Shown here: in pieces, positions 9,751-48,504 of the stretch
How the letters are laid out: each line of letters opens with the position of its first letter
Numbering within the stretch: position 1 is the first letter of the stretch
Source of the DNA: Promethearchaeota archaeon
Lineage (GTDB): Archaea > Asgardarchaeota > Lokiarchaeia > Sigyniarchaeales > SOKP01
Direction of reading: 5' to 3'
Assembly (NCBI GenBank): GCA_048941015.1
Contig: JBHLNZ010000001.1
Coordinates: 32,001-96,000 of the forward strand
Length of the DNA stretch: 64,000 bases
Program-made: the position numbers and the translations under genes
The notes under the pieces: model-generated
Databases searched by the model: none
What the model was told of the DNA's origin: nothing
Seen by the model: the letters and a program-made list of their open reading frames with translations, nothing else

Positions 9751-10791
9751 TTAGATATTTCGTAATCTTGGATCTAGTGCATCCCTTAATCCATCGCCCA
9801 AAAGCATAAATCCAAGAACTGTAATTAATATCATCAATCCCGGCCAGAACACTGCCCAAGGTGCGTCAAATAAACGAGCCATAGAAATCCAAATTTCCTT
9901 TCCCCAATCTATTAACCCTGGATCAGTAAAACCAAGAAATGCTAAGCCTGCTAAGTTTAAAATAACTGATCCAATGTCAAAAGTCACCGAAATTATAATT
10001 GGATTAATAACATTAGGAATTATATGTTTAAACATTATTCTACGGTTGTTAGCACCGACAACTTTAGCTGCTTGTACATATGGCAATTCTTTTGCTTGTA
10101 GGACCGAAGCTCTGATTAATCTTGCATAAGATGGTACTCCTATTATACCAAAAGCGAACATAAAAGCTTCAATTCTTTGTCCTATTATTGCTACAAACAC
10201 TAACGCAAGAATCAAACCTGGAAAGGAAAGAAGTACATCCATTATTCTCATCAAGATCAAATCTAACCAACTACCAAAATATCCTGCCATAGTACCAAGT
10301 AAGATTCCTACTATTACACTAAAACCAACAGCAGGAAATGCTATTACTAATGAAGCCCTTGCCCCATAAATTATTCTTGACAAAACGTCTCTTCCTAAAC
10401 TAGTAGTACCTAATAGATGTTCTGGAGATGGTGGTTCATATGAACCTAAAAACATTCCCATAGTTTGGCTTTCAAAACTATAAGGAGCAATCCATTGGCC
10501 AAAAATCGCAAAGGTAATTACCACAAAGATAATAATTATTCCAACTAAAGTTAAAAATGATTTCAGTCGCCGAATAAATTTCCGCTTACTAATCGTTTTT
10601 TCATATTCAAACTCTCTTTTTGACAATTCTTCTAATCGAGAACCCGGCACAAATAAGAATTTTATGTTTTTAAAAATCCATCGCAAGATAATTATTAATG
10701 TATTCTGCTTTTCCTCTTCCTCTCTCGACTCCTCTGTTTCGATCTCCTTAAATTCAATAGTTTCTTCTAATTCCGTCATTTCTTTAACCAA
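9751..10791 (-). CDS. oppC: Dipeptide/oligopeptide ABC transporter permease (OppC/DppC), orphan
   Basis: HLLGTTSLGRDVLSRIIYGAR, YVQAAKVVGA (EAA loop), GDGLRDALDPR. Confidence 0.92.
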   Translation of the reverse strand: MVKEMTELEETIEFKEIETEESREEEEKQNTLIIILRWIFKNIKFLFVPGSRLEELSKREFEYEKTISKRKFIRRLKSFLTLVGIIIIFVVITFAIFGQWIAPYSFESQTMGMFLGSYEPPSPEHLLGTTSLGRDVLSRIIYGARASLVIAFPAVGFSVIVGILLGTMAGYFGSWLDLILMRIMDVLLSFPGLILALVFVAIIGQRIEAFMFAFGIIGVPSYARLIRASVLQAKELPYVQAAKVVGANNRRIMFKHIIPNVINPIIISVTFDIGSVILNLAGLAFLGFTDPGLIDWGKEIWISMARLFDAPWAVFWPGLMILITVLGFMLLGDGLRDALDPRLRNI

Positions 10792-10809: not shown

Positions 10810-11472
10810 TTAGAATGTGAAAATCACGTCAAAGGGAAATTTATCAAAATTTTTTTCTAAGGTTCTTTTAAATCCCTCTGAAATTGGCTCAAATCCTTTT
10901 CCAATATAATTTCCAATTGAAATATAATCAGGTTTTATGTCTAAAAGAAAATTCTTTAAACTTTTTAAGTTATCAACATTATCATTAATCCCCCTAAAAA
11001 ACATTATATAAATTCCTAAATGACCTTTGTAAGTCCTCTTGAATCTGACCATCCCGTCTAATAACTCTTCTAAACTTAAATCAACACAACAAGGATTCAC
11101 CCTTCCAAAATTTGAAGGCTCGATACTATTAATATTAACTGCTATGAAATCACATTCTAACAATCCTTTTTGCGCTAATTTATTACATAATATGGAGCAA
11201 TTTACATACGTCCCAATTTTTTGATTTGGGTGAGCTTTCTTAATAAGATTGATTAAAAATTTTAATCCATGGAATATATATTGATCATTTGGAATTCTCA
11301 ACCATATATAGTCAGGACTTCCATTTTGGAATAAAAAATGATTTACTTCTCCAATGATTTCCTCGGTAGGAAAATCTTTTACTGAGATTGACTTCAGCGA
11401 ATCAAAATGAATTGGCATTATTATACCAAATCGCTTGTCATGCTGAATTTCATTAATATATTTATATTCCAT
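10810..11472 (-). CDS. Degenerate radical-SAM-like barrel protein lacking CxxxCxxC
   Basis: YVNCSIL, FGRVNP, MFFRGINDN, IKPDYI resemble the C-terminal part of small Fe-S oxidoreductase radical SAM proteins; no cluster motif. Confidence 0.5.
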   Translation of the reverse strand: MEYKYINEIQHDKRFGIIMPIHFDSLKSISVKDFPTEEIIGEVNHFLFQNGSPDYIWLRIPNDQYIFHGLKFLINLIKKAHPNQKIGTYVNCSILCNKLAQKGLLECDFIAVNINSIEPSNFGRVNPCCVDLSLEELLDGMVRFKRTYKGHLGIYIMFFRGINDNVDNLKSLKNFLLDIKPDYISIGNYIGKGFEPISEGFKRTLEKNFDKFPFDVIFTF

Positions 11473-11512: not shown

Positions 11513-14449
11513 CTAATCCTCGCTTACATCTTTAAAAAGTAGTCTTTCTGAAGGCAATTTCTTAGATTTTATCTTATCTATCCTTTCAAAACATTGTTTT
11601 GCTTTCTCATCATTACCTAGTGCCTGATAAGTTCTTCCCAGCTTTCTATATGTATCAAATACATACCATCCTGTAGGATTTAATTCTAAAGCCGTCTTGA
11701 ATTCTTTGATTGCTTCTTCATATCGCCTAGCCCACATTAAAACTTCTCCATACGTATCGTGATAATTACCAACATCTTGACCAATAGTAACTAACTTTTT
11801 ACCTGTTTCTAATGCTTCCTCTATTCTATTAAGCCTTCCTAAGAAAATTGTTTTATTATTAAGCATATCAAATTCATCGGGGTACTTATCGAGTGCAGTT
11901 TCACAAACTTCCAATCCTAAATCATCCTCACTAATCTCATATGCAATTAAGGATTTAAGTTTAAGAAGAGTTATCTCTTCCTTAGGAAATTCCAATATTA
12001 GTTTATCTAGTAGCATTAAAGATTCATTTGGTTGTTCGGATGAAAAAAGAAGCCAACATTTGTGCCTTTTGTAATCTAGAAGTATAGGTACTAATTCAAT
12101 CGCTTTATCGATCGCTTTTATTGATTCTTCATGCATTCCTATTTGTTCCATTACCATTGATTTTAGGTCATAATATCTCGCTTGATTTAGCTTATTTTGA
12201 TCCAATGATATAGTCATATCAATCTCGGTAAGAAATTTATCTGGTTTTATTTGTGCTTCACTGAAATTGTAGATAAGATCGTAACCATTAACTAAAGCTC
12301 CTGCTAAAGTTGCGATCGGATGATTTGAATGGCGATCTTGAACAGATCTAGCTACTTCTAAGGCTTTATTGAACTTCCCTTGCGTTAAATAAGAATAAAT
12401 TAAGATGAATGATACGGAAGTCTCCAATTTCGGATTCTTATCAAAAAGATTAATAATAATATCTTTTTTTATTATTCTCTTTGCCTCTTTATACCTATGG
12501 ATTATGCTGAGTAAAATTGCTTTTAGAATATAAAACTGTTTATCCTTAGGATTTAATTTGATTATTTTATCTATTAGTTCAAAATCTTCTTCATGAGATA
12601 TAACGCAACATTTCCTATTATACATTATAAAAATAATTTTTGTTTTTAATGCTAAAAGATTCTGTGAATCGCTTTTTAATATATTATCAACAATTTTAAC
12701 TGCTTTTTCATAATCGCCTTTATAAAGCAAGATATATGCTTTTTCGCATAATAATGAGGGATTACTTGCTATTTCCAAGCCTTCATCAATAATATAATCC
12801 GCCTCATCAAATTCTAATAAATAAAACAACGTAATTGATTTCAAAAGATAACCAATATACACTTCAGGATATTTCCTAATAAGTTCTTCTGATAATCTAA
12901 TTGCCTCTATTAAATCAAAAGAATTTGTTGCTACAAGATCTCTTACGATTAAATCTTCTAAATCATTAAACTTCTCTTTATTTTTATTATAAACAGATTT
13001 AATTTTCGATTTTTTACCCTTTAAGAGTAATTCATTTATTTCGTCAAAAATGTCTGCATTTTCATGATTATATAATTTCTTGAATTCAATGGTTGTCAAA
13101 AAATCTGATTTGGTTAATTGCATCACATCTAATGCTTTAAAAATTGAATCATCTATACTATAGTAATATTCATCTTCCATTGATTCTTGTTTTATTATCG
13201 AAGGTTCAAATGATTGAAACTCCTCAAATATATTCTGCCATATAAACCCTTCTCTTTTAGCATCATCTGAAATTAATTTCTTTTCTGTTCCAATTTTATA
13301 AGCGAGATATTTAATATATTCGGGTAAAAATTTTCGCAATGAATCTTTTAATTCATTAACAAAAATATTTTCACATATTTCATTAATAATGTTGTTTAAA
13401 AGGCTAGAAACATTAAATCTTGAACTTATTTCTCTCTCATAACCTGCTAATTTATTTAAGTATGTATATTTTGTAATATAATCATCAATAATTGCTCTTA
13501 ATATACGTTCTAACTTTTCATTTGCTTGAAAATAAAATTCTTTATCAGGAAATACGTCTAATCTGAAAAATTTCACAGGGTACAAATCCTCATCTACTAT
13601 TTTCTCGATAAAGAAATCAAGGGTAGTTTGTTTAATATTATACTTCTTTGCAAACGCCTGAGGAGAAACATACTCTGGATATTGATCTGGATGATTAATT
13701 GAAAGAAATAATAAGATCTTATTGAAATCCTCCTCTTCTTCTAACATATTTTCTACTTTTGAATAACTCATCTTTAGAGTATTGTTTAAAAATCGAAATT
13801 TGATATTATCATCTATAATGTCATATTTATCGTAGAAATCATTTGTATACATGGTTATTTCTTCTATTCGCTTGCTTTCCTCCTCCAAAATTGATTGGCG
13901 ATCTAGATCATAGGTTTTCAGCATCCTAAAGTACTCTACTTTACCAGTAGAAGTTATATAATATTCTTTATTCTCGTTCTTAATGAAACCCTTATCAATC
14001 AAAAAATTTTTACTCTTGGATAATGAGGATTGATTAATACCTAATGGTGGCTCTCGAAAATCGGACCATTTGCAGGATTCATTATTATATAACATCCATA
14101 AAATCCAATGATCATAATTCCTCTTTCTCAAAATTGCTTTTGGAGGATATACTAATTTCGGTCTTCCCAATTCCTCATCATAGGAAATCTCATTAAAATG
14201 GGATCTACCTTCAGTTGTTATCCTATAATGTCCCCTTTTAAATCTATCAATATAATCTTTATTAATTAGATCATTGATATAATTTGAAAGAGTTGATTCA
14301 CTGATCTCTGATTCTTCTGTAAAATCCCGCCATTCGCAATATTCATTATTAGAAAGCATCCAAAGAATTATATATTCATAATTTGGATTTGTTCCAGGAG
14401 GAGATAATATCTCTTTTGGGGGTAAAATTAAATTTTTTGAGCTGCTCAT
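11513..14449 (-). CDS. Tandem winged-helix + TPR-repeat protein (putative transcriptional regulator / peptide receptor), copy 1
   Basis: Two internal repeats NY(E/D)x(I/W)ILWMLxNNExCxWxDF..S(T/S)LS..L..K..I....Y.IT..G; C-terminal TPRs (e.g. YHDTYGEVLMWARRYEEAIKEFKTALELNP); paralog at 45186-47681. Confidence 0.85.
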   Translation of the reverse strand: MSSSKNLILPPKEILSPPGTNPNYEYIILWMLSNNEYCEWRDFTEESEISESTLSNYINDLINKDYIDRFKRGHYRITTEGRSHFNEISYDEELGRPKLVYPPKAILRKRNYDHWILWMLYNNESCKWSDFREPPLGINQSSLSKSKNFLIDKGFIKNENKEYYITSTGKVEYFRMLKTYDLDRQSILEEESKRIEEITMYTNDFYDKYDIIDDNIKFRFLNNTLKMSYSKVENMLEEEEDFNKILLFLSINHPDQYPEYVSPQAFAKKYNIKQTTLDFFIEKIVDEDLYPVKFFRLDVFPDKEFYFQANEKLERILRAIIDDYITKYTYLNKLAGYEREISSRFNVSSLLNNIINEICENIFVNELKDSLRKFLPEYIKYLAYKIGTEKKLISDDAKREGFIWQNIFEEFQSFEPSIIKQESMEDEYYYSIDDSIFKALDVMQLTKSDFLTTIEFKKLYNHENADIFDEINELLLKGKKSKIKSVYNKNKEKFNDLEDLIVRDLVATNSFDLIEAIRLSEELIRKYPEVYIGYLLKSITLFYLLEFDEADYIIDEGLEIASNPSLLCEKAYILLYKGDYEKAVKIVDNILKSDSQNLLALKTKIIFIMYNRKCCVISHEEDFELIDKIIKLNPKDKQFYILKAILLSIIHRYKEAKRIIKKDIIINLFDKNPKLETSVSFILIYSYLTQGKFNKALEVARSVQDRHSNHPIATLAGALVNGYDLIYNFSEAQIKPDKFLTEIDMTISLDQNKLNQARYYDLKSMVMEQIGMHEESIKAIDKAIELVPILLDYKRHKCWLLFSSEQPNESLMLLDKLILEFPKEEITLLKLKSLIAYEISEDDLGLEVCETALDKYPDEFDMLNNKTIFLGRLNRIEEALETGKKLVTIGQDVGNYHDTYGEVLMWARRYEEAIKEFKTALELNPTGWYVFDTYRKLGRTYQALGNDEKAKQCFERIDKIKSKKLPSERLLFKDVSED

Positions 14450-14497
14450 TTTTTAAAATTCCTCTTGTAACTTCATTTAACTCCTATAATAACGTAT

Positions 14498-14596
14498 AGT
14501 TCGAAGTTATATTTATACTTTACACTTCGAAATAAAGTATGAACCATTGCCGAAGTTCAAACTTCACTGCGAAGTTCGAAGTACAAACCTATAAAT
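14498..14596. promoter_or_regulatory. Divergent promoter region with repeated GAAGT/ACTTC operator-like sites and TATA box
   Basis: AGTTCGAAGT at 14498 and 14573, ACTTCGAA 14524, palindrome GAAGTTcaAACTTC 14552-14565, TATAAAT 14590-14596. Confidence 0.6.
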
Positions 14597-14678
14597 GAAT
14601 TATTATCCTAATAAAAATTAATAACAAAAAAGAAAAAACGAGAAAGAAACACAAAAAAAAGTTAAGAGGTTATAAAAA

Positions 14679-14918
14679 ATGGCACAAGTAGAATTAAGAA
14701 AAGTTGAGCCAAAAAAATGTGTTGATATAGAATTAATAAAATTAGATGAACTCCCTGTTCCCGAAGTCATAGAAGAAAAGGAAGAGGAGATTATAAAGAA
14801 AAAAGGATTGAAAGGCATTATAAATAAATTTCGTAATCATGCCAAATATCATGAAGAATTCATAAATATTGAAAAAGTTAAACGTCAATTAATTTATAGG
14901 AACTTTGGAGTTAATTAA
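14679..14918 (+). CDS. Small protein (79 aa), CVDIE...YRNFG family, copy 1
   Basis: GAGGT at 14666-14670; shares CVDIE and NIxxVKxQxxYRNFG with 47857-48132. Confidence 0.85.
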   Translation: MAQVELRKVEPKKCVDIELIKLDELPVPEVIEEKEEEIIKKKGLKGIINKFRNHAKYHEEFINIEKVKRQLIYRNFGVN

Positions 14919-14960
14919 AATTTTTTCAAGTAAGATTATGTTAAAAATTGATGATAAAAA

Positions 14961-15044
14961 ATGAGTTTAAAAGAAAAAATAAAGGTATGGGTTTGTAGAC
15001 ACTTCTGTTCTGCGTCATGCCGAGCGGAAATCTGCGCTGAATGA
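14961..15044 (+). CDS. 27-aa Cys-rich peptide MSLKEKIKVWVCRHFCSASCRAEICAE
   Basis: Manual translation; inside the small-ORF operon; GC-rich relative to flanks; Cx3Cx3Cx4C. Confidence 0.55.
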   Translation: MSLKEKIKVWVCRHFCSASCRAEICAE

Positions 15045-15082
15045 AATTATAATTAAAATAAAAAAAAAGAGGTACAAAAAAA

Positions 15083-15148
15083 ATGGCAAGAAAAGAAAGA
15101 TTGATAATAATTAGAAATGATGAGTTTAACTCGAGATATTTTAGATAA
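15083..15148 (+). CDS. 21-aa peptide MARKERLIIIRNDEFNSRYFR (conserved peptide family)
   Basis: GAGGT at 15069-15073; ungapped similarity to peptides at 15206 and 48177. Confidence 0.8.
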   Translation: MARKERLIIIRNDEFNSRYFR

Positions 15149-15205
15149 TTAATTTCAAAATATAAAAATATATTCAAAATAAAAATTAAAAAGAGGTAGA
15201 AGGAA

Positions 15206-15274
15206 ATGAACGAGAAAAAAAGAATAATTGTGTTAAAAAACGCGAGCTATAACGTAAAATATTTCAAATGGTAA
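15206..15274 (+). CDS. 22-aa peptide MNEKKRIIVLKNASYNVKYFKW (conserved peptide family)
   Basis: GAGGT at 15193-15197; ungapped similarity to peptides at 15083 and 48177; followed by T-tract. Confidence 0.82.
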   Translation: MNEKKRIIVLKNASYNVKYFKW

Positions 15275-15285
15275 TCAAATTCACA

Positions 15286-15298
15286 TTTTTTTATTTTT
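15286..15298 (+). terminator. Oligo-T tract after the peptide operon
   Basis: TTTTTTTATTTTT; equivalent T8 tract at 48252-48259 in copy 2. Confidence 0.4.
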
Positions 15299-15317
15299 AA
15301 GACGTATTAAACAAATC

Positions 15318-15406
15318 CTCCAATTTGTTTGAAGCTTTCCGTACAATCACTTAATAGGATGATACCCACGCACCTGGGCAGACGAGTGCTCAGGTGCATT
15401 CCATCC
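15318..15406 (+). ncRNA. Conserved structured non-coding element, copy 1 (function unknown)
   Basis: 54/64 nt ungapped identity to 48283-48346; stem GCACCTGGGCA/TGCTCAGGTGC with a G-U pair; outer GGATG/CATCC. Confidence 0.6.
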
Positions 15407-15652
15407 ATCAACAATTAATGCAACCATAATTTCATAAAATTCTGATCATTTATGACTCCTGCAGCCGTCTTCTTTGTTGGAATAATCATCCCAAATCTGT
15501 TAATAGTCTTAATAGATGGGTTTGGTGGAGTCATCTTTTAAAATAAACATAAATTTTTTAGAGTTGTTTTTTCCTTTTTTCGATTTTTTTTTTAAATATA
15601 TACGATAAAACCAGACTATATTTCCTGAACTATTTATTAAAGGTTAATTAAG

Positions 15653-17825: not shown

Positions 17826-19316
17826 TTATGCTTTAAAATCTTTCTCTCTTAATTCTTTTTCAGCATTAATATAGATTTCATTAATTCTTTGTTGGATATT
17901 TTCTATTAATGGCATTGGTTGATGTGTTTCAAGAATATTTAATGTTATATGGATCAAATTTTCTCTGTAATCTTTTTTACCTTTTTTAATCCAAGTTTCT
18001 GGATCATCGCGATTAAAGAATTCTGGACGCCAAAGTTCTTCTCGAAAGTGTTTTAATGTATGTTTTTCTGAAAGAAATTCTCCACCTTGACCAACCTTTC
18101 GAATTATATCAATAGCAAGTTTTTCTCTATTCAATTTAAATCCATTAACAAATCTTTTAATATAACTTATAATTTCATTACACATAATAATAGAAGCCGG
18201 ATTTCCTAGTAATCCTTGTCCTAGGTATCCAATATCGTGAATCAAATTTGCACCATCAAGAGTAGCCAATAATGTTGCTACACCATGTTCAAACGCTGCT
18301 TGTTGATCAAGTGAAAATGAATCAGAGCCTACTGTAGACCACATAGGAAGATTATAATAGTGAAATAGATCAGCAAAAGCAGAATTAGCAATTCGAAATT
18401 CAGGAGCACCGTATAAAAAAGTCGATAATCTCATATCTAGTGGTACCAGAGCAAAACCAGAAATAATAGGAGCACCCTTTTTCTTAAGTTGATGTAAAAC
18501 AATACCACTTAAAGCTTCAGCATTTGCTTGAGCAATTCCTCCTGCTAAAGTTACTACTGCAGTTGCTCCCATAATATCTCCTGGAGTGTAACAAATTGGT
18601 ATACCTTTTTCAGCACAAAGAAAAAGTTTCCTAATAGCTCCATATGAATGCGATAGGGGTGCGGTTGGTTCAGAGTAATGTATAATAAAGGGCTTATATT
18701 TAAGTTGCTCTGCCCCACCAGCGATTAATTCTGCCATTTCAATAATAAATGCAAGGTCTTCTCTCCCAGCTGCAGTAAAGAAAATTGGTTTGACTGAGTT
18801 TTCCATCATAGCTTTCACACAATTGATATACATTAAATTAGTTGGAACATCAGAAGGTAATGCAAATGATGCAATGAAGTCAATATTTTGACAAAAATCA
18901 GCAATTCGAGCCGCATTTTTTACATCTTGTAATACAGATAATCTGATTTGACCTGTTTTTAAATCCTGAGTACGTATTAAGTCAGTTCCCAACCCAAAAT
19001 AATTATTGTGATTTTCTAACCTCATTGCTTCCTGTCCCTCTCTATTGTAAATAGTAATACGGGAAGGAGCACTGTGAATACTTTCTTCGACTAACCAATT
19101 TGGGATGTGTACGATATCATCATCCTCAATTGTACAACCCGCTTTTTCTAAGAGTTTTACACCTTCTTTAAGAGATACACGAACTCCAATATTTTCTAAG
19201 ATCTCCAAACTTGCTAGATGGATTTTTTTAATTTGTTTTTCTGATAAAAACCTATAATGTGGTCTACAATTTTTTTCAATTGAATCTACCATTTTATTTT
19301 TACCCTCAATTTTCAT
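17826..19316 (-). CDS. mttB: Trimethylamine methyltransferase (MttB) superfamily, non-pyrrolysine
   Basis: IHLASLEILENIGV, TLAGGIAQANAEALSG, DMR...YGAPE, GANLIHDIGYL; no in-frame amber codon. Confidence 0.9.
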   Translation of the reverse strand: MKIEGKNKMVDSIEKNCRPHYRFLSEKQIKKIHLASLEILENIGVRVSLKEGVKLLEKAGCTIEDDDIVHIPNWLVEESIHSAPSRITIYNREGQEAMRLENHNNYFGLGTDLIRTQDLKTGQIRLSVLQDVKNAARIADFCQNIDFIASFALPSDVPTNLMYINCVKAMMENSVKPIFFTAAGREDLAFIIEMAELIAGGAEQLKYKPFIIHYSEPTAPLSHSYGAIRKLFLCAEKGIPICYTPGDIMGATAVVTLAGGIAQANAEALSGIVLHQLKKKGAPIISGFALVPLDMRLSTFLYGAPEFRIANSAFADLFHYYNLPMWSTVGSDSFSLDQQAAFEHGVATLLATLDGANLIHDIGYLGQGLLGNPASIIMCNEIISYIKRFVNGFKLNREKLAIDIIRKVGQGGEFLSEKHTLKHFREELWRPEFFNRDDPETWIKKGKKDYRENLIHITLNILETHQPMPLIENIQQRINEIYINAEKELREKDFKA

Positions 19317-19335
19317 ATATTATAAATCATATATA

Positions 19336-19983
19336 TCAATTTTTTATCAAGGTTTTTACTACTTTGACAGCAACTATGGCATTTTCAGCATAACCATCAG
19401 CACCACATTCTTCAACCCATCTTTCTGTTACAGGTGCCCCCCCTAAGATTACTTTGAATTTGTCTCTAATTCTTTTATCTATAAGAAGTTCTACAACGCG
19501 TTTCTGTTTCACCATTGTTGTTGTTAAAAGAGCAGAAACCGCAATGATATCTACATCTTTTTTAATTGCTTCCTCAATAATTACTTCGGGTTGAACGTCT
19601 ACCCCTAAATCATAAACCTCAAATCCATAAGCTTTAAGCATTGTACCAACAATTGTCTTTCCTATTGAATGAATATCACCTTCTATAGTTGCGATTACTA
19701 CTTTGCCCAATACTTTCCGTGTTTCACCAGATTGAAGATGTGGTATGAGAACATCCGTGCATTCTTCCAATATTTTTCCACCCATCATCAATTCGGGCAA
19801 GAAATAATCTCCATTTTCCCATAATTCTCCTACAATTTTTATTCCTTCTCCAAATCCTCTTTCGAGAATATCTAATATATCCATCTTTTTATTAATTGCT
19901 CTTTTAGATAATTTTAATGCTTCCTCTCGGTTCAGACTTTTTATTGAATTTTTGATTTCAATTATTAAATCTTCCGTTGACAT
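19336..19983 (-). CDS. Corrinoid (B12-binding) protein, MttC-like
   Basis: GDIHSIGK, DLGVDV, SALLTTTM, GGAP, GADGY. Confidence 0.93.
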   Translation of the reverse strand: MSTEDLIIEIKNSIKSLNREEALKLSKRAINKKMDILDILERGFGEGIKIVGELWENGDYFLPELMMGGKILEECTDVLIPHLQSGETRKVLGKVVIATIEGDIHSIGKTIVGTMLKAYGFEVYDLGVDVQPEVIIEEAIKKDVDIIAVSALLTTTMVKQKRVVELLIDKRIRDKFKVILGGAPVTERWVEECGADGYAENAIVAVKVVKTLIKN

Positions 19984-19995
19984 AAACCTCTCACT

Positions 19996-21177
19996 TTATT
20001 CTTTAACTTTATTTAAAAAATTTTGATCTATATATTGAGAAATATACTCTCTTAATTTGGGATCATAACCCTTTAGAAGTGCTTTAAGTTTTAGTAATGC
20101 TTTATTTGGATTCTCATCCAACAAAGTAATTTCACAGCCGGGTCCAGGAATATATCTCCCTTCCTTTTCAATATCCCTATTTACTAATTGCATAAGGATT
20201 GATTTGCGAAATATTTCACGTTCATCATCAAGAAATAGTGCTTTATTATTAGAGTTTCCAATTAATACTTTATCTCTGATAAGTTTAGAAAATTGTTTTA
20301 ATGAAACTTCTTCATCTAAACTAAAAGCATCAACTTCTTTTAGTTTTGCAAAGGAATTGAATAACATTGTAGTATTTCCACAAGCATGAAAAATAACTGA
20401 ACTATTATTAGTTTTAATCAATTTTATTAAACTATTTAATGGATTCAGTAAATAATTCTGGAATCTAGCATTATCAAGATATATTGCATTTGGTTCTAGG
20501 ATGCAAAATACTTCAAAACCTAATTTTAATAAATATTTCGCTAGAATTTTTGAGCATTCTGTGGTGTAATCAATCCATTTTTTCAGAATTGAATTTCTAG
20601 TATTCTCATGTTTATTTTTAACAGACAGCAATAACATTTTTTCAGGACTGATTAATTGAGCCAAAAGTGATGCAGGACCAGGAATATATCCCATTAAGAG
20701 CTTATCACTTAAAATCGGGGAAGAACGAACCAATTTTACAAAGATCTCATTTTGACATAAAATTTTATCCTTTTCTAATATTGGGTACTTCATCTGATCG
20801 TTGAGTATCAGATCATGATCAAAGAATGATTTGATGGCTGTTTCTCCCGTAGGGAAATTCTTAATAACGATACCTTTACCATTAACCAATGCTACTGATT
20901 GAGCAAGGTTATTTAAATCCATAAATGTACTTATTATTGGAATAGATACATCTAAATTTTCCAATTCACCGTAAATCCATTCCAATATTTCGACTTGAAG
21001 CTCATAATCACTTCGCATCACTTTTTCAGAGTGATATTTTTCTTTTTCCCCTTTAAATTTATATATGTTGAAATTTTTTAAGATTGCTTCGATTGCAATT
21101 AGGAGAATTGTGATATTCTTCTTAAATTTTGATCGTTGATTTGCCAAATCCCTTAATGTTATCGGTTCATCCACCAT
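19996..21177 (-). CDS. UroD/MtaA-MtbA-family methylcorrinoid methyltransferase
   Basis: GPASL, FHACG (HxC Zn ligands), LIGN, PGCE; adjacent to corrinoid gene. Confidence 0.72.
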   Translation of the reverse strand: MVDEPITLRDLANQRSKFKKNITILLIAIEAILKNFNIYKFKGEKEKYHSEKVMRSDYELQVEILEWIYGELENLDVSIPIISTFMDLNNLAQSVALVNGKGIVIKNFPTGETAIKSFFDHDLILNDQMKYPILEKDKILCQNEIFVKLVRSSPILSDKLLMGYIPGPASLLAQLISPEKMLLLSVKNKHENTRNSILKKWIDYTTECSKILAKYLLKLGFEVFCILEPNAIYLDNARFQNYLLNPLNSLIKLIKTNNSSVIFHACGNTTMLFNSFAKLKEVDAFSLDEEVSLKQFSKLIRDKVLIGNSNNKALFLDDEREIFRKSILMQLVNRDIEKEGRYIPGPGCEITLLDENPNKALLKLKALLKGYDPKLREYISQYIDQNFLNKVKE

Positions 21178-43992: not shown

Positions 43993-44898
43993 TTAATAAA
44001 TATTATTTCTATCATTTTCTAGGCATTCACGAACTTTTACTAGAAAGCTACGTTTATTATATTCTAATTCAGTTTCAGGAAAAGCTAATAGACTCCAGTA
44101 ATACGCGAGAATCTCTTCTGGATGCAGTCTATGTTGATTATTATAGGGATCAATTTCTTCACATAAATCATATAATGCTTGAGGGGCATTAATGAATTTA
44201 GGTTGACTATTTTTGTATACGGGATAACAGATACTGTCTTTCAATTGAATAGTAAGAAAGCAAAATCGGAAGTATCGAAAGAAATACCCACCTTTATATG
44301 GTTGTTCTGAATAAAGAAATGGAGCTGCTTTTGTTTCACTCCCATTAAAATCTCTGAATTCTACATAGCAATTTTTTTTAACTGTATCAGGATTAGTAAC
44401 ATATAATTCTCGATACTCTTCTGGCATTTTTAATTCGGGACATGAAGTAAACCCCAATTTGGCATACAGATTATTTCTAAATTTGGGATAAAATGTACTT
44501 ATTATATGAAAAAGTTCATGTGTGATTAATTCTTTTAATTCATTGTAAGGCCAGCGAATCATTGAATTTGGCATATAAATACAACTCTTTCTGGTATATG
44601 CAGCATCACCTTCATCTAATCCTGTAGTTTTTATTAGCAGAATCTCAGCTGGTAAGATCTTTTGATATTGCTTATAAGCATTTTCAATCTCTTCAAAAAT
44701 TTTTTCGATTCTATCTTTCTCAATTTGAGTCCAATCAATAGTTTGCTGGGACAGAAATGTGATTAAATCCTCTTTTGATACTTCTTCCGAAGTTCCTAAT
44801 CGGGATTGTAAATCAAATTTACTAAAATTAGCGATATAATCATCTTTTTGAGCAATTAGTTTCGAACCTGGAATACTATCAATTAATTTAACTTTCAA
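43993..44898 (-). CDS. Putative zincin-type metallopeptidase
   Basis: AAYTR, HELFH (HExxH), NPD, HPEEILA. Confidence 0.65.
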   Translation of the reverse strand: MKVKLIDSIPGSKLIAQKDDYIANFSKFDLQSRLGTSEEVSKEDLITFLSQQTIDWTQIEKDRIEKIFEEIENAYKQYQKILPAEILLIKTTGLDEGDAAYTRKSCIYMPNSMIRWPYNELKELITHELFHIISTFYPKFRNNLYAKLGFTSCPELKMPEEYRELYVTNPDTVKKNCYVEFRDFNGSETKAAPFLYSEQPYKGGYFFRYFRFCFLTIQLKDSICYPVYKNSQPKFINAPQALYDLCEEIDPYNNQHRLHPEEILAYYWSLLAFPETELEYNKRSFLVKVRECLENDRNNIY

Positions 44899-45081: not shown

Positions 45082-45155
45082 GGGGTGGTAGTCCAGCTTG
45101 GTAGGATTCTTGGTTCGGGATCAAGAGGTCGAGGGTTCAAGTCCCTCCTACCCCA
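45082..45155 (+). tRNA. trnP: tRNA-Pro (anticodon CGG), intronless, CCA not encoded
   Basis: Acceptor GGGGTGG/CTACCCC + A; anticodon arm CTTGG-TTCGGGA-TCAAG; T arm GAGGG-TTCAAGT-CCCTC. Confidence 0.95.
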
Positions 45156-45185: not shown

Positions 45186-47681
45186 TTATTCTAAAAACTC
45201 CTTAACTTCGATTATACTGTTCCTTGCTCTTTCTTTCCATTCATCCATATTCTCAAAATCACAGATACATCTCGCTGCGTGATCTAAGCCCTTCTCATAA
45301 CTCTCTTTTGCTTTTTCATACTCTTCAAGGGCTCTATAAGCATCTCCCATCTTGATAGCAGTTTGATAGCAGTACCATCCATTAGGCTCTATTTCCATAG
45401 CTTTCTGGAATTCTTGGATTGCTTGTTTGTATTTTCCAAACCATAACAAGATTTCACCATATGAATCATGATAATTTCCCTCATCAGGAGCAATTTCTAT
45501 TAATTTCTTACCGATCTCAATTGCTTCTTCTTTTTGGTTTAATTTTCCAAGTTCGTACAATTTACTATTGAAAAGTTCTGGATCAGAGGGTTCTTTTTCC
45601 AATAATTCATTAGTGATCTTTAGACTTTCACTATAATCTCCCATCCAATAGAGAAATGAAGACTTCTTTTGTAAAATCTTCTTTTCCTGATCTGGAAATT
45701 GTTTTAACAATTCATCCGTTAATCTAATTACCCCTTCAAAATCTTTTTCAAATTTCATTAATATTTTTATTTTCGAGAAATACAACCAAAGACTTTTTGG
45801 TTTTAAATTATTGATCTCATTTGTTTCTTCAAGCGCTTCTTGATATCTTTTTAATTCTTGTAATACAAAGCTCTTTAATTGATGGATAAGGGCTTTATTA
45901 GTATTATCAGTTTCTAATGAAATAGCTTTATCGGTAACGCTCAAGAAATCCTTATCTATATCCGACTTTCCTTTCTCAAAGTTATAAATTAAATTATATC
46001 CATGAACTAGTGCTTTTGCAAGATATGCTATTGAGTTTTTAGGGTGATCCTGTAGTAACTCATTAGCAACTCTTAATGCTTTCTTAAATTTACCTTGATT
46101 CAAATATATGAATGTAAAAATAAAAGAGCGACTTAGAGCTAACTGAGAATTAACAGAGACGATTGATTGATCAACTCCTTCTTTTAACAATTTTTCGGCT
46201 TCTTTATGTCTATTCAAATAGCAAAGAAGAATTGATTTAAGTATAATTAAATTTTGATTTTCTGCCTCCTTTTGTAGTTCTGATTCAGCTATCTCTAACG
46301 CTTCTTTTAGTTCCCAATCATCAATTAATTCCTGGATTTTGATGATTTGCTTATTCTCAGAAATATAAATCGATTCTAAAATACCTAAAATACTTGGATA
46401 TAAAAAGAAATAAGGATCACTATGATTTATTTGTAAATTTTCAAATTCGTTCATAAATTCTTGTATCGCAATTCCTCTGAGTTTATCATCTGTTTCGATC
46501 AATCTTCTTTGCTTTTCGATTTTATATGCTAAATGTTTGATATATTCTGGTAAAAATCTTTTTAACGCTTCTCTCATCTCTCCATTAAAAATATGATCAC
46601 AGATTTCATTTAATACTTGATTAACAACAATTGAGATATACATAACAGGAGGTTCACTAGAAGTATTATCGTAAAATTCATTTAAGTAAGTGAATTGTGT
46701 AATATAATCATCAACAATAGCTCTTAAAACTCTTTCAATTTTCTCACCAGCTTGGAAATAATAAGTACGCCCCTCATCATCTTCTAATTTGAAGAATTTA
46801 ATGGGAAATATTTTTTCGTCAATAATTTTCATGATAAAAAACTTCAATATCTCTTCTCTAATATTGAATTTTAGACAAAAGTCTTTAGCGGAAATGTAAT
46901 TAGGATACTGATTTGGATGATTAATTGCGATATATAATAAAATCTTGTTAAAATCTTCTTCAGCTATAAAGTTTTCAGATTTAGAATAATCTAATTTTAA
47001 TATATTGTTTAAAAGGCGAAACTTTATACCATTATCATCAATATTATACTTCTCAAAGAATTTACTCATTTTGTCAGTAATCTCTTTTACTCTTTTACGC
47101 TCTTCATCTAAAATAGATTGACGATCTAAATCGTACTCCTTTAAGATTTCAGCATAGGCAATCTTACCAGCATTAGCAATTCTATATTTATTATTCTCTT
47201 TTTTTATCAATCCATCCTCTTGTAAAAAATTCAAATTCTTCGATAATGAAGAATTGTTAATAAAAATTGGATTATCATCTCCTTGAAAATCCGACCATTT
47301 GCAATAATTATTATTATAGCATATCCATAAAATCCAATGGTAATAATTACGTCTTTTTAAGATAGTTTTTGGAGGATAACTTAATTTACGTTTAATTTTT
47401 CTCGATTTTGATAACTGTCTAAACCTTTCTTCACCCTCAGGGGTAATCTGATACTTTCCTCGTTCCTCATTGATGATAAATCCTTTATTTATTAACTTGT
47501 TTCTATAATTTGAGAATGTACTTTGACTAATATTAATTGGATCGTCTAGAAAGTCTGACCATTCACATTCCTCGTTATTAGATAACATCCAAAGAATAAT
47601 ATGTTCATAGTTTTTTCTTTCTGCATCCAGGATTTCTTTTGGTGGATAATTGGTTATTGCTGTTTTACTCACAAAAATCAC
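45186..47681 (-). CDS. Tandem winged-helix + TPR-repeat protein, copy 2
   Basis: NYEHIILWMLSNNEECEWSDF, YPPKTILKRRNYYHWILW, YDLDRQSIL, GNYHDSYGEIL shared with 11513-14449; fewer TPRs. Confidence 0.85.
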   Translation of the reverse strand: MIFVSKTAITNYPPKEILDAERKNYEHIILWMLSNNEECEWSDFLDDPINISQSTFSNYRNKLINKGFIINEERGKYQITPEGEERFRQLSKSRKIKRKLSYPPKTILKRRNYYHWILWICYNNNYCKWSDFQGDDNPIFINNSSLSKNLNFLQEDGLIKKENNKYRIANAGKIAYAEILKEYDLDRQSILDEERKRVKEITDKMSKFFEKYNIDDNGIKFRLLNNILKLDYSKSENFIAEEDFNKILLYIAINHPNQYPNYISAKDFCLKFNIREEILKFFIMKIIDEKIFPIKFFKLEDDEGRTYYFQAGEKIERVLRAIVDDYITQFTYLNEFYDNTSSEPPVMYISIVVNQVLNEICDHIFNGEMREALKRFLPEYIKHLAYKIEKQRRLIETDDKLRGIAIQEFMNEFENLQINHSDPYFFLYPSILGILESIYISENKQIIKIQELIDDWELKEALEIAESELQKEAENQNLIILKSILLCYLNRHKEAEKLLKEGVDQSIVSVNSQLALSRSFIFTFIYLNQGKFKKALRVANELLQDHPKNSIAYLAKALVHGYNLIYNFEKGKSDIDKDFLSVTDKAISLETDNTNKALIHQLKSFVLQELKRYQEALEETNEINNLKPKSLWLYFSKIKILMKFEKDFEGVIRLTDELLKQFPDQEKKILQKKSSFLYWMGDYSESLKITNELLEKEPSDPELFNSKLYELGKLNQKEEAIEIGKKLIEIAPDEGNYHDSYGEILLWFGKYKQAIQEFQKAMEIEPNGWYCYQTAIKMGDAYRALEEYEKAKESYEKGLDHAARCICDFENMDEWKERARNSIIEVKEFLE

Positions 47682-47752
47682 AATTAGTTCTTTAATACCG
47701 TTATAATATAATTATTGAAACTACAATTTAAAGTTACTTATACAAAATCTAA

Positions 47753-47818
47753 TAATGAACTTTCATTAAACTACATAGTTCATCTGAACTATATGTAGAA
47801 TAACTATAAATCGAAGTA
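47753..47818. promoter_or_regulatory. Divergent promoter with inverted-repeat operators and TATA box
   Basis: TAATGAActTTCATTA 47753-47768; ATAGTTCAtcTGAACTAT 47775-47792; TATAAAT 47805-47811; TCGAAGTA 47811-47818. Confidence 0.6.
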
Positions 47819-47856
47819 TATCTTATAATTAATTAAGAAAAAAAAAGTGATTAAAA

Positions 47857-48132
47857 ATGGTAGAAGCAAACTTAAACGGATTAGAAACAAAGAATAATAT
47901 TAATTGTGTAGATATCGAAAAGATAATCAAAGAATGTGTTTCAGAACTACAAGAAGAGAAGGCTAAAGTCTCAGTGATAAAAGATAATAATAAGAGTCGC
48001 TTGGATTCAAAATCAAGATCACTTAGAAGGCAATTAAATAAAAGTAAACATAATAATAAATACATTAACGAATTAAAAAATATAAAATATGTGAAGAGCC
48101 AGGTTCATTACAGGAATTTTGGCACCTATTAA
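47857..48132 (+). CDS. Small protein (91 aa), CVDIE...YRNFG family, copy 2
   Basis: GTGAT RBS at 47847; shared motifs with 14679-14918. Confidence 0.85.
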   Translation: MVEANLNGLETKNNINCVDIEKIIKECVSELQEEKAKVSVIKDNNKSRLDSKSRSLRRQLNKSKHNNKYINELKNIKYVKSQVHYRNFGTY

Positions 48133-48176
48133 TAAATCAAAAATAAAAATAAAAAAATGAAAGAGATGGAAACAAA

Positions 48177-48245
48177 ATGAAAAAATTTGAACGAATAATT
48201 ATGATAAAGAACGCAGGGTATAATACACAATATTTCAGATTCTAA
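48177..48245 (+). CDS. 22-aa peptide MKKFERIIMIKNAGYNTQYFRF (conserved peptide family)
   Basis: Manual translation; ungapped similarity to 15083 and 15206 peptides; GAGATGG upstream; T-tract downstream. Confidence 0.82.
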   Translation: MKKFERIIMIKNAGYNTQYFRF

Positions 48246-48282
48246 ATTAAATTTTTTTTCTAATATTTTTATTAAATTTATT

Positions 48283-48378
48283 CTCCAATTTGTGTAAAAC
48301 TTTCCAATCGATCACTTAATAGGATGATACGCACATACCTGGGCAGAGAAGAATGAATGCTCAGGGGCGTATCATCTT
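48283..48378 (+). ncRNA. Conserved structured non-coding element, copy 2 (function unknown)
   Basis: Stems AGGATGATACGC/GCGTATCATCTT and CCTGGGCA/TGCTCAGG; homologous to 15318-15406. Confidence 0.6.
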
Positions 48379-48504
48379 ACAAAACTTTGTAAATGTTTCC
48401 CTTAATATTTGTAGTAGAAATTTTCTAATTTTTTTCCGGAAAAGAAGAAATTTATAAATAGAAGGGAAGTATAGTTATTCATTAGAAATCATACGTAGAA
48501 GATC

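Follow-up and report, generated by a model that had tools for sequence, protein, structure and literature searches.

A paralogous winged-helix/TPR regulator with a divergent microprotein operon: a candidate lineage-specific transcription switch in an Asgard archaeon

Introduction

Peptide receptors of the RRNPP type (Rap, Rgg, NprR, PlcR, PrgX and AimR) combine an XRE-type helix-turn-helix (HTH), which is absent in Rap, with a tetratricopeptide repeat (TPR)-like domain, and the peptides sensed by them are exported (with a Sec signal or as hydrophobic SHP-type peptides), processed and re-imported, whereby the mature peptide binds to the TPR groove and alters the activity of the regulator. For the Asgard archaea, to which eukaryotes are more closely related than to any other prokaryotes, almost nothing is to our knowledge known about gene regulation and small proteins. 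Here, a gene module is described which occurs twice in a stretch of 64,000 nucleotides (nt) from a Promethearchaeota archaeon of the order Sigyniarchaeales (assembly GCA_048941015.1, contig JBHLNZ010000001.1, positions 32,001 to 96,000; this whole stretch, with a G+C content of 30%, is referred to as the window). Each copy consists of a large regulator gene coding for winged helices and TPRs and, divergent from it, an operon of very small genes which is followed by a conserved non-coding element. An earlier reading of this DNA, made from the sequence only, had taken the module for an archaeal analogue of RRNPP signalling and knew of no described system of this kind, and full-text literature searches, aimed at RRNPP-like systems in archaea or at an architecture of this kind among the Asgards, indeed found none. 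As the major outcome of the analysis, each copy is suggested to constitute a self-contained, lineage-specific transcription switch, in which an activator and autoregulator would drive an operon of cytoplasmic microproteins, a reading to which we give about an even chance of being correct.

Layout of the two modules

All parts of copy 1 which the sequence-only reading had listed were found in place, and so was the repetition of the module order at 45186-48382, there with one micropeptide and without the Cys peptide. The features are given below (aa, amino acids; HMM, hidden Markov model; RBS, ribosome-binding site; SP80, family of the basic small proteins).

Copy 1
11513-14449, minus strand: regulator 1, 978 aa; Pfam winged HTH (HTH_45, HTH_34, MarR) in the N-terminal part, plus many TPR families
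14450-14678: divergent control region of 229 nt, with a candidate operator array (14497-14576) and the cassette TATA box (~14588-14597), then an A-rich leader
14679-14918, plus strand: 79-aa basic small protein, SP80 family by family HMM
14961-15044, plus strand: 27-aa peptide with four Cys (Cx3Cx3Cx5C), conserved in orthologous loci
15083-15148, plus strand: micropeptide A, 21 aa, with its own GAGGT RBS, the start being 7-9 nt after the motif
15206-15274, plus strand: micropeptide B, 22 aa, with its own GAGGT RBS, the start being 7-9 nt after the motif
15286-15298: T-tract, 3' of micropeptide B
15317-15411, plus strand: non-coding element, a conserved 5' segment of ~40 nt followed by an imperfect hairpin (15358-15405)
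15370-15380, pairing with 15387-15397: inner stem of this hairpin, one G.U pair
10810-11472, minus strand: 220-aa companion gene, in the same direction as regulator 1 and 40 nt downstream of it

Copy 2
45186-47681, minus strand: regulator 2, 831 aa; by Pfam of the same architecture as regulator 1, with a shorter TPR part
47682-47856: divergent control region, with a near-palindrome (47771-47798) immediately 5' of the TATA box (47802-47811)
47857-48132, plus strand: 91-aa basic small protein, SP80 family
48177-48245, plus strand: micropeptide C, 22 aa
48252-48259: T-tract, 3' of micropeptide C
48282-48382, plus strand: non-coding element, with a hairpin at 48323-48376

Regulators 1 and 2 are 41% identical, the 91-aa protein and the 79-aa open reading frame (ORF) share 34.8% identity (tblastn E = 1.5e-5), and the non-coding elements share 85% across 65 nt. 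No further copies of any module part were found in the 3.59-Mb genome outside the two modules of the window; this confinement, together with the micropeptides being the top three family-HMM matches of the genome, places the recurrence beyond chance.

Comparison with described systems

Likeness to the Rgg/SHP, ComR/ComS and PlcR/PapR systems of Bacillota consists in a DNA-binding N-terminus joined to a TPR-type C-terminus and in divergent peptide genes of ~21-25 codons with a basic N-terminus; as in Rgg/SHP-type systems, many paralogous cassettes exist per genome, each with its own operator, and the adjacent short pro-peptide gene typical for RRNPP systems has its counterpart here in the micropeptide (29/80 loci) and the SP80 gene (50/80). 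In contrast to RRNPP systems, no sequence or family match to RRNPP was obtained, three winged helices take the place of the XRE-type HTH, and the TPRs form a long and regular superhelix, for which OGT and SPY are closest among the matches listed. Further differences are the hydrophilic nature of the peptides, which possess no export-competent segment, the additional parts (a basic protein of ~80 aa, an RNA hairpin and a relic of a radical S-adenosylmethionine (SAM) enzyme) and the archaeal host with its TATA-box promoter. What stood of the proposed RRNPP analogy is hence the divergent layout with an adjacent short peptide gene, while homology, an export signal and a conserved transporter did not bear it out.

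Neighbourhoods which combine short peptide genes with a TPR regulator and a radical-SAM enzyme have been described for the streptococcal Rgg/SHP radical-SAM operons (streptide, tryglysin and relatives; PMC13361665, PMC8092268, PMC9389541), which code for ribosomally synthesised peptides that undergo modification after translation (RiPPs); here, unlike there, the enzyme is mostly dead (28/31) and would share its transcript with the regulator and not with the peptides, and no exporter is present. AfsR-type SARPs (PMC10936776) and MalT/LAL-type STAND proteins likewise are large cytoplasmic activators in which a winged-helix head is joined to a TPR sensor at the C-terminus, and their binding sites are located immediately 5' of the core promoter. 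The present regulator differs from them in having neither BTAD nor NB-ARC/NOD ATPase (by Pfam; the linker is purely helical in the model), and its winged helices are archaeal MarR/Sso10a-like and present in three copies. Chains of several winged helices are also found in RPC62/C82, TFIIIC tauB and the C-terminal tandem winged helices of SelB, but with TM-scores of 0.13-0.19 this likeness is one of repeated winged helices only and implies no shared function.

The small genes

For comparison, about 110 regulator loci were collected, 30 from genomes of the same genus and 80 from metagenome contigs, plus close copy 2 orthologs found via the 91-aa protein. As the sampled loci are mutually related, counts overstate independence, and the family HMMs may miss divergent peptides. 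The micropeptide HMM was seeded on few members and iterated over all ORFs of 14-45 codons in the upstream regions, and the SP80 HMM was obtained by the same procedure on ORFs of 46-140 codons. With these models, 50 micropeptide matches were identified across ~100 homologous loci, every one of them on the divergent strand, the complementary strand giving none, and likewise 71 SP80 matches on the divergent (cassette) strand and none antisense, the SP80 start usually being located 150-250 nt from the regulator start. When the 80 distinct loci having 1 kb or more of upstream DNA were considered, an SP80 gene was detected in 50, a family micropeptide in 29 and either of them in 55, all on the divergent strand, which agrees with the earlier assumption that regulator and small genes co-occur.

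Within the genome, the three window micropeptides rank as the best three of 24,715 small ORFs (family HMM, E 4e-8 to 6e-6; 3e-7 for micropeptide A and 4e-8 for micropeptide B), the next-best small ORF having E = 0.004. When compared with its L055 ortholog, micropeptide A shows one synonymous and one conservative codon difference and micropeptide B four synonymous and three non-synonymous ones; for micropeptide C, a 16-residue core is kept in the orthologs L048, L050 and L051, with up to nine synonymous versus three to five non-synonymous differences. Orthologs of the 91-aa protein are 60-78% identical and every one of them is divergent from the regulator. The Cys peptide, a single-copy gene in this genome, was also identified on the cassette strand of L055, L056 and L006, where its Cys core is retained across 8-10 synonymous codon changes. 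Taken together, the one-sided HMM matches, the synonymous codon changes, the strong GAGGT sites and the top genome-wide ranking identify the small ORFs as real genes which by these signatures are translated, and the pattern of codon changes argues for purifying selection on the peptides. None of the small ORFs of the window has a Pfam match, standard annotation overlooks all micropeptides, and the family comprises dozens of unannotated micropeptide genes.

As to their properties, the micropeptides are basic and hydrophilic (median isoelectric point 9.7, median grand average of hydropathy -0.67), and no signal-peptide-like, SHP-like or transmembrane segment was found in them, the longest hydrophobic run being at most five residues. 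SP80 proteins have a median isoelectric point of 9.5, and the C-terminal residue is F, Y or W in 36/48 micropeptides and 48/65 SP80 proteins. The micropeptides might have been stand-alone duplicates of the SP80 C-terminal tail, an idea which was rejected, as hhalign gave E = 0.22 with a different region aligned and only the aromatic last residue is common to both.

The content of the operon was found to vary. In the close ortholog L056, both micropeptides are lost while regulator, operator, SP80, Cys peptide and RNA element are kept. Among the cassettes L003, L006, L057, L087, L115, L117 and L131, some carry two SP80-family members in tandem, and in L002, L015, L017 and L019 a single-pass membrane protein of ~113 aa follows the first small gene, both of which suggests the cassette cargo to be modular. 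Outside the window, an orphan ORF of 26 codons (G000 contig C58:122005-122085, minus strand) gave a weak match to the micropeptide family (E = 0.0036). This ORF possesses the same A-rich leader and copy-2-operator-like sequences upstream, and is divergent from a 500-aa membrane/zinc-ribbon ORF, no regulator adjoining it.

The control regions

The intergenic region of the regulator contains palindromes of the GAAGTTCG type, which are built from GAAGTT, AACTTC and TTCGAA units, and in 52 such regions from homologous loci CGAAGT, AGTTCG and GTTCGA occur as hexamers 24- to 35-fold more often than in the genome. The palindromes are located directly 5' of the conserved TATA box and A-rich leader of the small-gene operon, and one more site overlaps what is probably the regulator gene's own promoter. 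The copy 1 array (14497-14576) is the sole cluster in the genome with at least four such hexamers within 120 nt; a wider copy 1 regulon in this genome was considered and rejected, as no second operator cluster was found genome-wide. In the orthologs L055 and L056, the regulators of which are 76-83% identical, the copy 1 control region is nearly invariant, and the intergenic regions are better conserved than the coding flanks. Copy 2 possesses a half-site different from that of copy 1, namely of the TGAACTA type, in a block which is conserved in the orthologs L048, L050, L051 and L054; on this evidence each paralog has its own putative operator variant. The position of the sites upstream of the TATA box suggests that the operon would be activated by their occupation, and the site on the regulator's own promoter likewise points to autoregulation.

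The regulator

Of the 36 genomes searched in the genus, 34 possess the regulator family, which was also identified in a single genome from a sister family; a genome gave up to 14 matches (matches, which are not to be equated with copy number). In the remaining families of the order covered by the search, four single-contig genomes included, no member was detected. Its members fall into length classes of ~640, 830 and 990 aa, the first 410 residues being common to all, and at least 791 database relatives of regulator 2 exist at E <= 1e-20, which are annotated only as TPR, winged HTH or hypothetical proteins of Asgard metagenome-assembled genomes. For residues 1-410 of regulator 1, AlphaFold (pLDDT 80) predicted winged helices at 24-77, 112-165 and 239-308, arranged as two canonical winged helices, a long helix, the third winged helix and a helical bundle. 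Full-length regulator 2 (pLDDT 83.6) was predicted to consist of three winged helices followed by ~22 helices of a regular TPR superhelix (429-830). According to these models, the regulator is composed of three winged helices, a helical linker and an OGT-like TPR solenoid; the sequence-only reading, which had assumed a pair of winged helices in place of an XRE-type HTH, was right about the fold but not about its number.

Foldseek searches with the N-terminal 410 residues gave RPC62/C82, TFIIIC tauB and the SelB tandem winged helices among the best matches (E = 4e-4 to 6e-3) and SarS and MarR-type regulators as further good ones, the TM-scores being low throughout (0.13-0.19). For the TPR part, the 50 matches listed are headed by OGT, SPY, consensus-TPR designs, APC subunits, TTC7B, Tom70 and LbcA and include no RRNPP receptor. 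At the level of families, no RRNPP/Rgg model of Pfam or NCBIfam matches either regulator, generic TPR and winged-helix models alone being obtained and the NCBIfam matches lying below the family cut-offs. An NB-ARC/NOD or other P-loop NTPase was not detected as a Pfam family, and the linker between winged helices and TPR is all-helical in the models, with no beta-sheet core. Regular TPR superhelices such as those of OGT, Tom70 and LbcA bind extended peptides or protein tails.

The non-coding element and its hairpin

The copy 1 hairpin (15358-15405) is calculated to fold with -33.4 kcal/mol, corresponding to z = -4.7 on the plus strand versus -1.7 on the minus strand when compared with shuffles, and the copy 2 element gives z = -3.5 on the cassette strand versus -1.6 on the opposite one. 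A covariance model, which was built from three copies and scores copy 1 with 111.9 and copy 2 with 102.5 bits, located the full element in the window copies, in their close orthologs (L055, L056, L048/L049, L051-L053) and in one other species, G032; G036 possesses a partial element, and L050 retains the 5' segment alone. The co-occurrence of regulator and RNA element, which the sequence-only reading had assumed, turned out not to be general, as the element accompanies only close relatives of the two copies and is otherwise met in two other species. The non-coding element is real but lineage-restricted. It is almost unchanged in L055 and L056, while in L048 and L051 the stems are kept with a different loop and G.U to A-U changes. 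Rfam gave no match at gathering score and, at relaxed thresholds, chance-level matches only (E ~0.6). In the seven full elements, 84% of the pair cells hold standard pairs versus 25-43% for slid partners.

The core stem of the hairpin (GCACCUG, two to three more pairs, loop and complement) was also identified inside the SP80 gene of another subfamily, where it encodes a conserved A-P-E-V ... P-Q-V motif. Altogether, 19 core stems are present in 149 kb of cassette DNA as compared to 0.0028 per kb per strand genome-wide, which is a 46-fold enrichment. Across 24 stem instances, one pair is realised as C-G, G-C or A-U and another as A-U or U.G, and wobble pairs occur only in the sense orientation. 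In L099, both stem arms are altered together, though two amino acids change thereby, and the codons within the stem are GAG and CAG throughout, with GAA and CAA being preferred elsewhere in the same genes. We take the hairpin to be a cis element of the operon transcript which acts at the level of RNA. RNAalifold yielded an alternative structure (15317-15375 and 48282-48340) in which a pairing is formed between the conserved 5' segment and the hairpin's 5' shoulder and a U-A to G-C exchange is seen once; this predicted pairing excludes the outer stem and hints at an RNA with two states.

Other identities of the element were considered and rejected. A multi-copy repeat resembling miniature inverted-repeat transposable elements is contradicted by the distribution of the 5' segment, which is present twice here and once (plus a copy at a contig edge) in G032, no further occurrence being found across 42 genomes of the genus. 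A C/D-box small RNA or K-turn was dismissed on inspection, the candidate box being one arm of a perfect helix, and a small ORF within the element is opposed by all six frames, which carry stops or differ between the copies. At the G032 locus (G032:C194:1-3653, L039/L040), the element is situated at the contig edge beside two duplicated genes for leucine-rich repeat (LRR) proteins, with an inverted copy of the 5' segment 200 nt away and a fragment of the 3' half of the hairpin after the second LRR gene; these fragments may be the trace of recombination at the element.

The radical-SAM-derived companion and other neighbours

Homologs of the 220-aa protein directly follow the regulator in 31 loci. 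In three of them (L097, L023 and L024), all beside regulators of 830-850 aa, the CxxxCxxC and GxGEP motifs are intact, and in the remaining 28, including the window protein, both motifs were lost via an in-frame deletion of ~18 residues. The identity to the intact L097 enzyme is 31-42% over the full length, and a profile of 20 companion homologs (relics) matched the pyruvate formate-lyase activase 3can_A with E = 0.0033 only; the 220-aa companion itself has no Pfam or NCBIfam match. From these comparisons the companion is classified as a probable radical-SAM relic devoid of the cluster Cys motif. Copy 2 has no radical-SAM-derived companion gene.

Other neighbours of copy 1 are an OppC-like ABC permease gene (9751-10791, minus strand), which stands alone, with no OppB, OppD, OppF or binding-protein gene among the neighbouring genes scanned, and major facilitator superfamily (MFS) genes, which are also near the module in the window. 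A conserved transporter or permease partner was rejected, as OppC-like, MFS, ICMT-like and transmembrane neighbours do not recur, the OppC-like and MFS genes extending only to the closest ortholog; across the compared loci, no protease or transporter is consistently linked to the module. Two kb from copy 1, a methyltransferase set was noted (17826-21177, minus strand; an MttB-family protein, a corrinoid-binding protein and a URO-D-like methyltransferase), which has no apparent tie to the module. Downstream of regulator 2, a 301-aa protein (43993-44898, minus strand) carries an HExxH motif and a weak match to DUF5700 (putative Zn peptidase), and its homologs adjoin modules in L054, L010 and L011, on differing sides. 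A tRNA-Pro(CGG) gene (45082-45155, plus strand) is located between regulator 2 and this HExxH gene, 30 nt from the regulator 2 stop codon.

Interpretation and alternative explanations

The suggested switch assumes that the regulator, as a large cytoplasmic protein, binds with its winged-helix domains to the paralog-specific palindromic array, 5' of the operon TATA box and overlapping the regulator's promoter. This binding would activate the divergent operon, which yields one basic protein of ~80 aa and one to three peptides of 21-27 aa, each with its own RBS, and would at the same time autoregulate the regulator gene. The TPR solenoid is expected to serve as the input or partner-binding part, for which the microproteins, or the radical-SAM relic presumed to be co-transcribed with the regulator, are the evident candidates for feedback within the cell. 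Finally, the conserved hairpin in the operon RNA may add a post-transcriptional layer, be it stability, processing or protein binding. Three points weigh against this model. Neither small-gene family was detected by the HMMs in 25/80 loci, from which it follows that the output of the switch is variable or is partly undetected; covariation in the seven full elements is weak, with two pairs changed on both sides, a value reached by 77/500 shuffles; and activation was preferred over repression from a single line of evidence, the position of the operator.

Some of the observations would also be consistent with intracellular autoinduction, in which the micropeptides and/or the SP80 tail would bind to the TPR groove of their own regulator and alter its DNA binding, no export being involved. 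The regular TPR superhelix has peptide-binding relatives, the peptide subtypes follow the regulator subclades, numerous paralogous pairs exist per genome, and the frequent F/Y/W ends (36/48 and 48/65) are a possible shared C-terminal tag. This has to be balanced against L056, where both micropeptides are absent but the rest of the module was kept, against the one third of loci without detectable family members and against the dissimilarity of the micropeptide and SP80-tail profiles (hhalign E = 0.22), and we regard autoinduction as unlikely, if worth keeping in view. A predicted complex of regulator 2 and its 91-aa neighbour scored 0.00 which, given an uncertain fold of the partner and no controls, is evidence neither way. 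Held at the same low level is the more general idea of an independent Asgard peptide-receptor signalling, in which each paralogous winged-helix/TPR regulator would recognise its own peptide of 21-26 residues, within or between cells, with the structured RNA and the disabled radical-SAM protein as further unprecedented parts of the circuit. If the peptides left the cell, possibly underwent processing, and were then taken up again and recognised by the TPR part, the module would represent RRNPP-like quorum sensing, with which the divergent layout and peptide length (both as in Rgg/SHP), the basic peptide N-termini, the OppC-like permease and MFS genes near the module in the window and the HExxH putative peptidase recurring beside some modules are consistent. 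Yet the regulator belongs to RRNPP neither by sequence nor by fold, and the OppC-like and MFS neighbours are unconserved beyond the closest ortholog; since the peptides are devoid of a hydrophobic, signal or otherwise export-competent segment, no transporter is conserved, the natural ortholog L056 has lost both micropeptides and one third of the loci lack a family member, quorum sensing is considered very unlikely.

The companion gene brings up the possibility that the module is the relic of a RiPP-type cluster, with the small peptides being or having been precursors for the radical-SAM enzyme and the regulator acting as pathway-specific activator. For regulator, short peptides and radical-SAM enzyme there is a streptococcal precedent (PMC13361665, PMC9389541), and the arrangement resembles that of the Rgg/SHP-controlled radical-SAM peptide operons of streptococci; the enzyme homolog follows the regulator in 31 loci, being intact in three, and the peptides are short with conserved C-terminal cores, one of them with four Cys. 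What makes this origin quite doubtful is that the cluster Cys and SAM-binding motifs are gone in 28/31 homologs, copy 1 included, that copy 2 has no enzyme gene and its peptides nevertheless remain conserved, that no transporter or protease is consistently linked and that the enzyme is placed in the transcription unit of the regulator instead of that of the peptides. The hairpin, too, might be the real target, bound by the tandem winged helices as RNA stem or as DNA inverted repeat, so that the protein would affect either the transcript of the cassette or a second site further downstream. The RNA-hairpin binder SelB, with its tandem winged helices, is among the best Foldseek matches of the N-terminal model, and the core stem is 46-fold enriched in cassettes, at two different positions; but with TM-scores of 0.13-0.19 RNA polymerase III and MarR-type DNA binders rank equally, the stem is found in only 19 of ~100 loci, and the promoter palindromes are much more general, which leaves this explanation a slim chance only. 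The transcription switch, with the promoter palindromes as operators, is the reading which we favour.

Significance

The regulator family is among the most expanded in Asgard archaea, and it now comes with a candidate operator and a defined target operon. Two of the accompanying parts are of interest in themselves, as the putative radical-SAM relic would be a clean example of an enzyme retained after loss of its catalytic cluster, and the hairpin would exemplify a constraint at the nucleotide level which shapes a protein motif. The circuit suggested here is testable, and its investigation would show whether archaea have peptide-responsive transcription factors.

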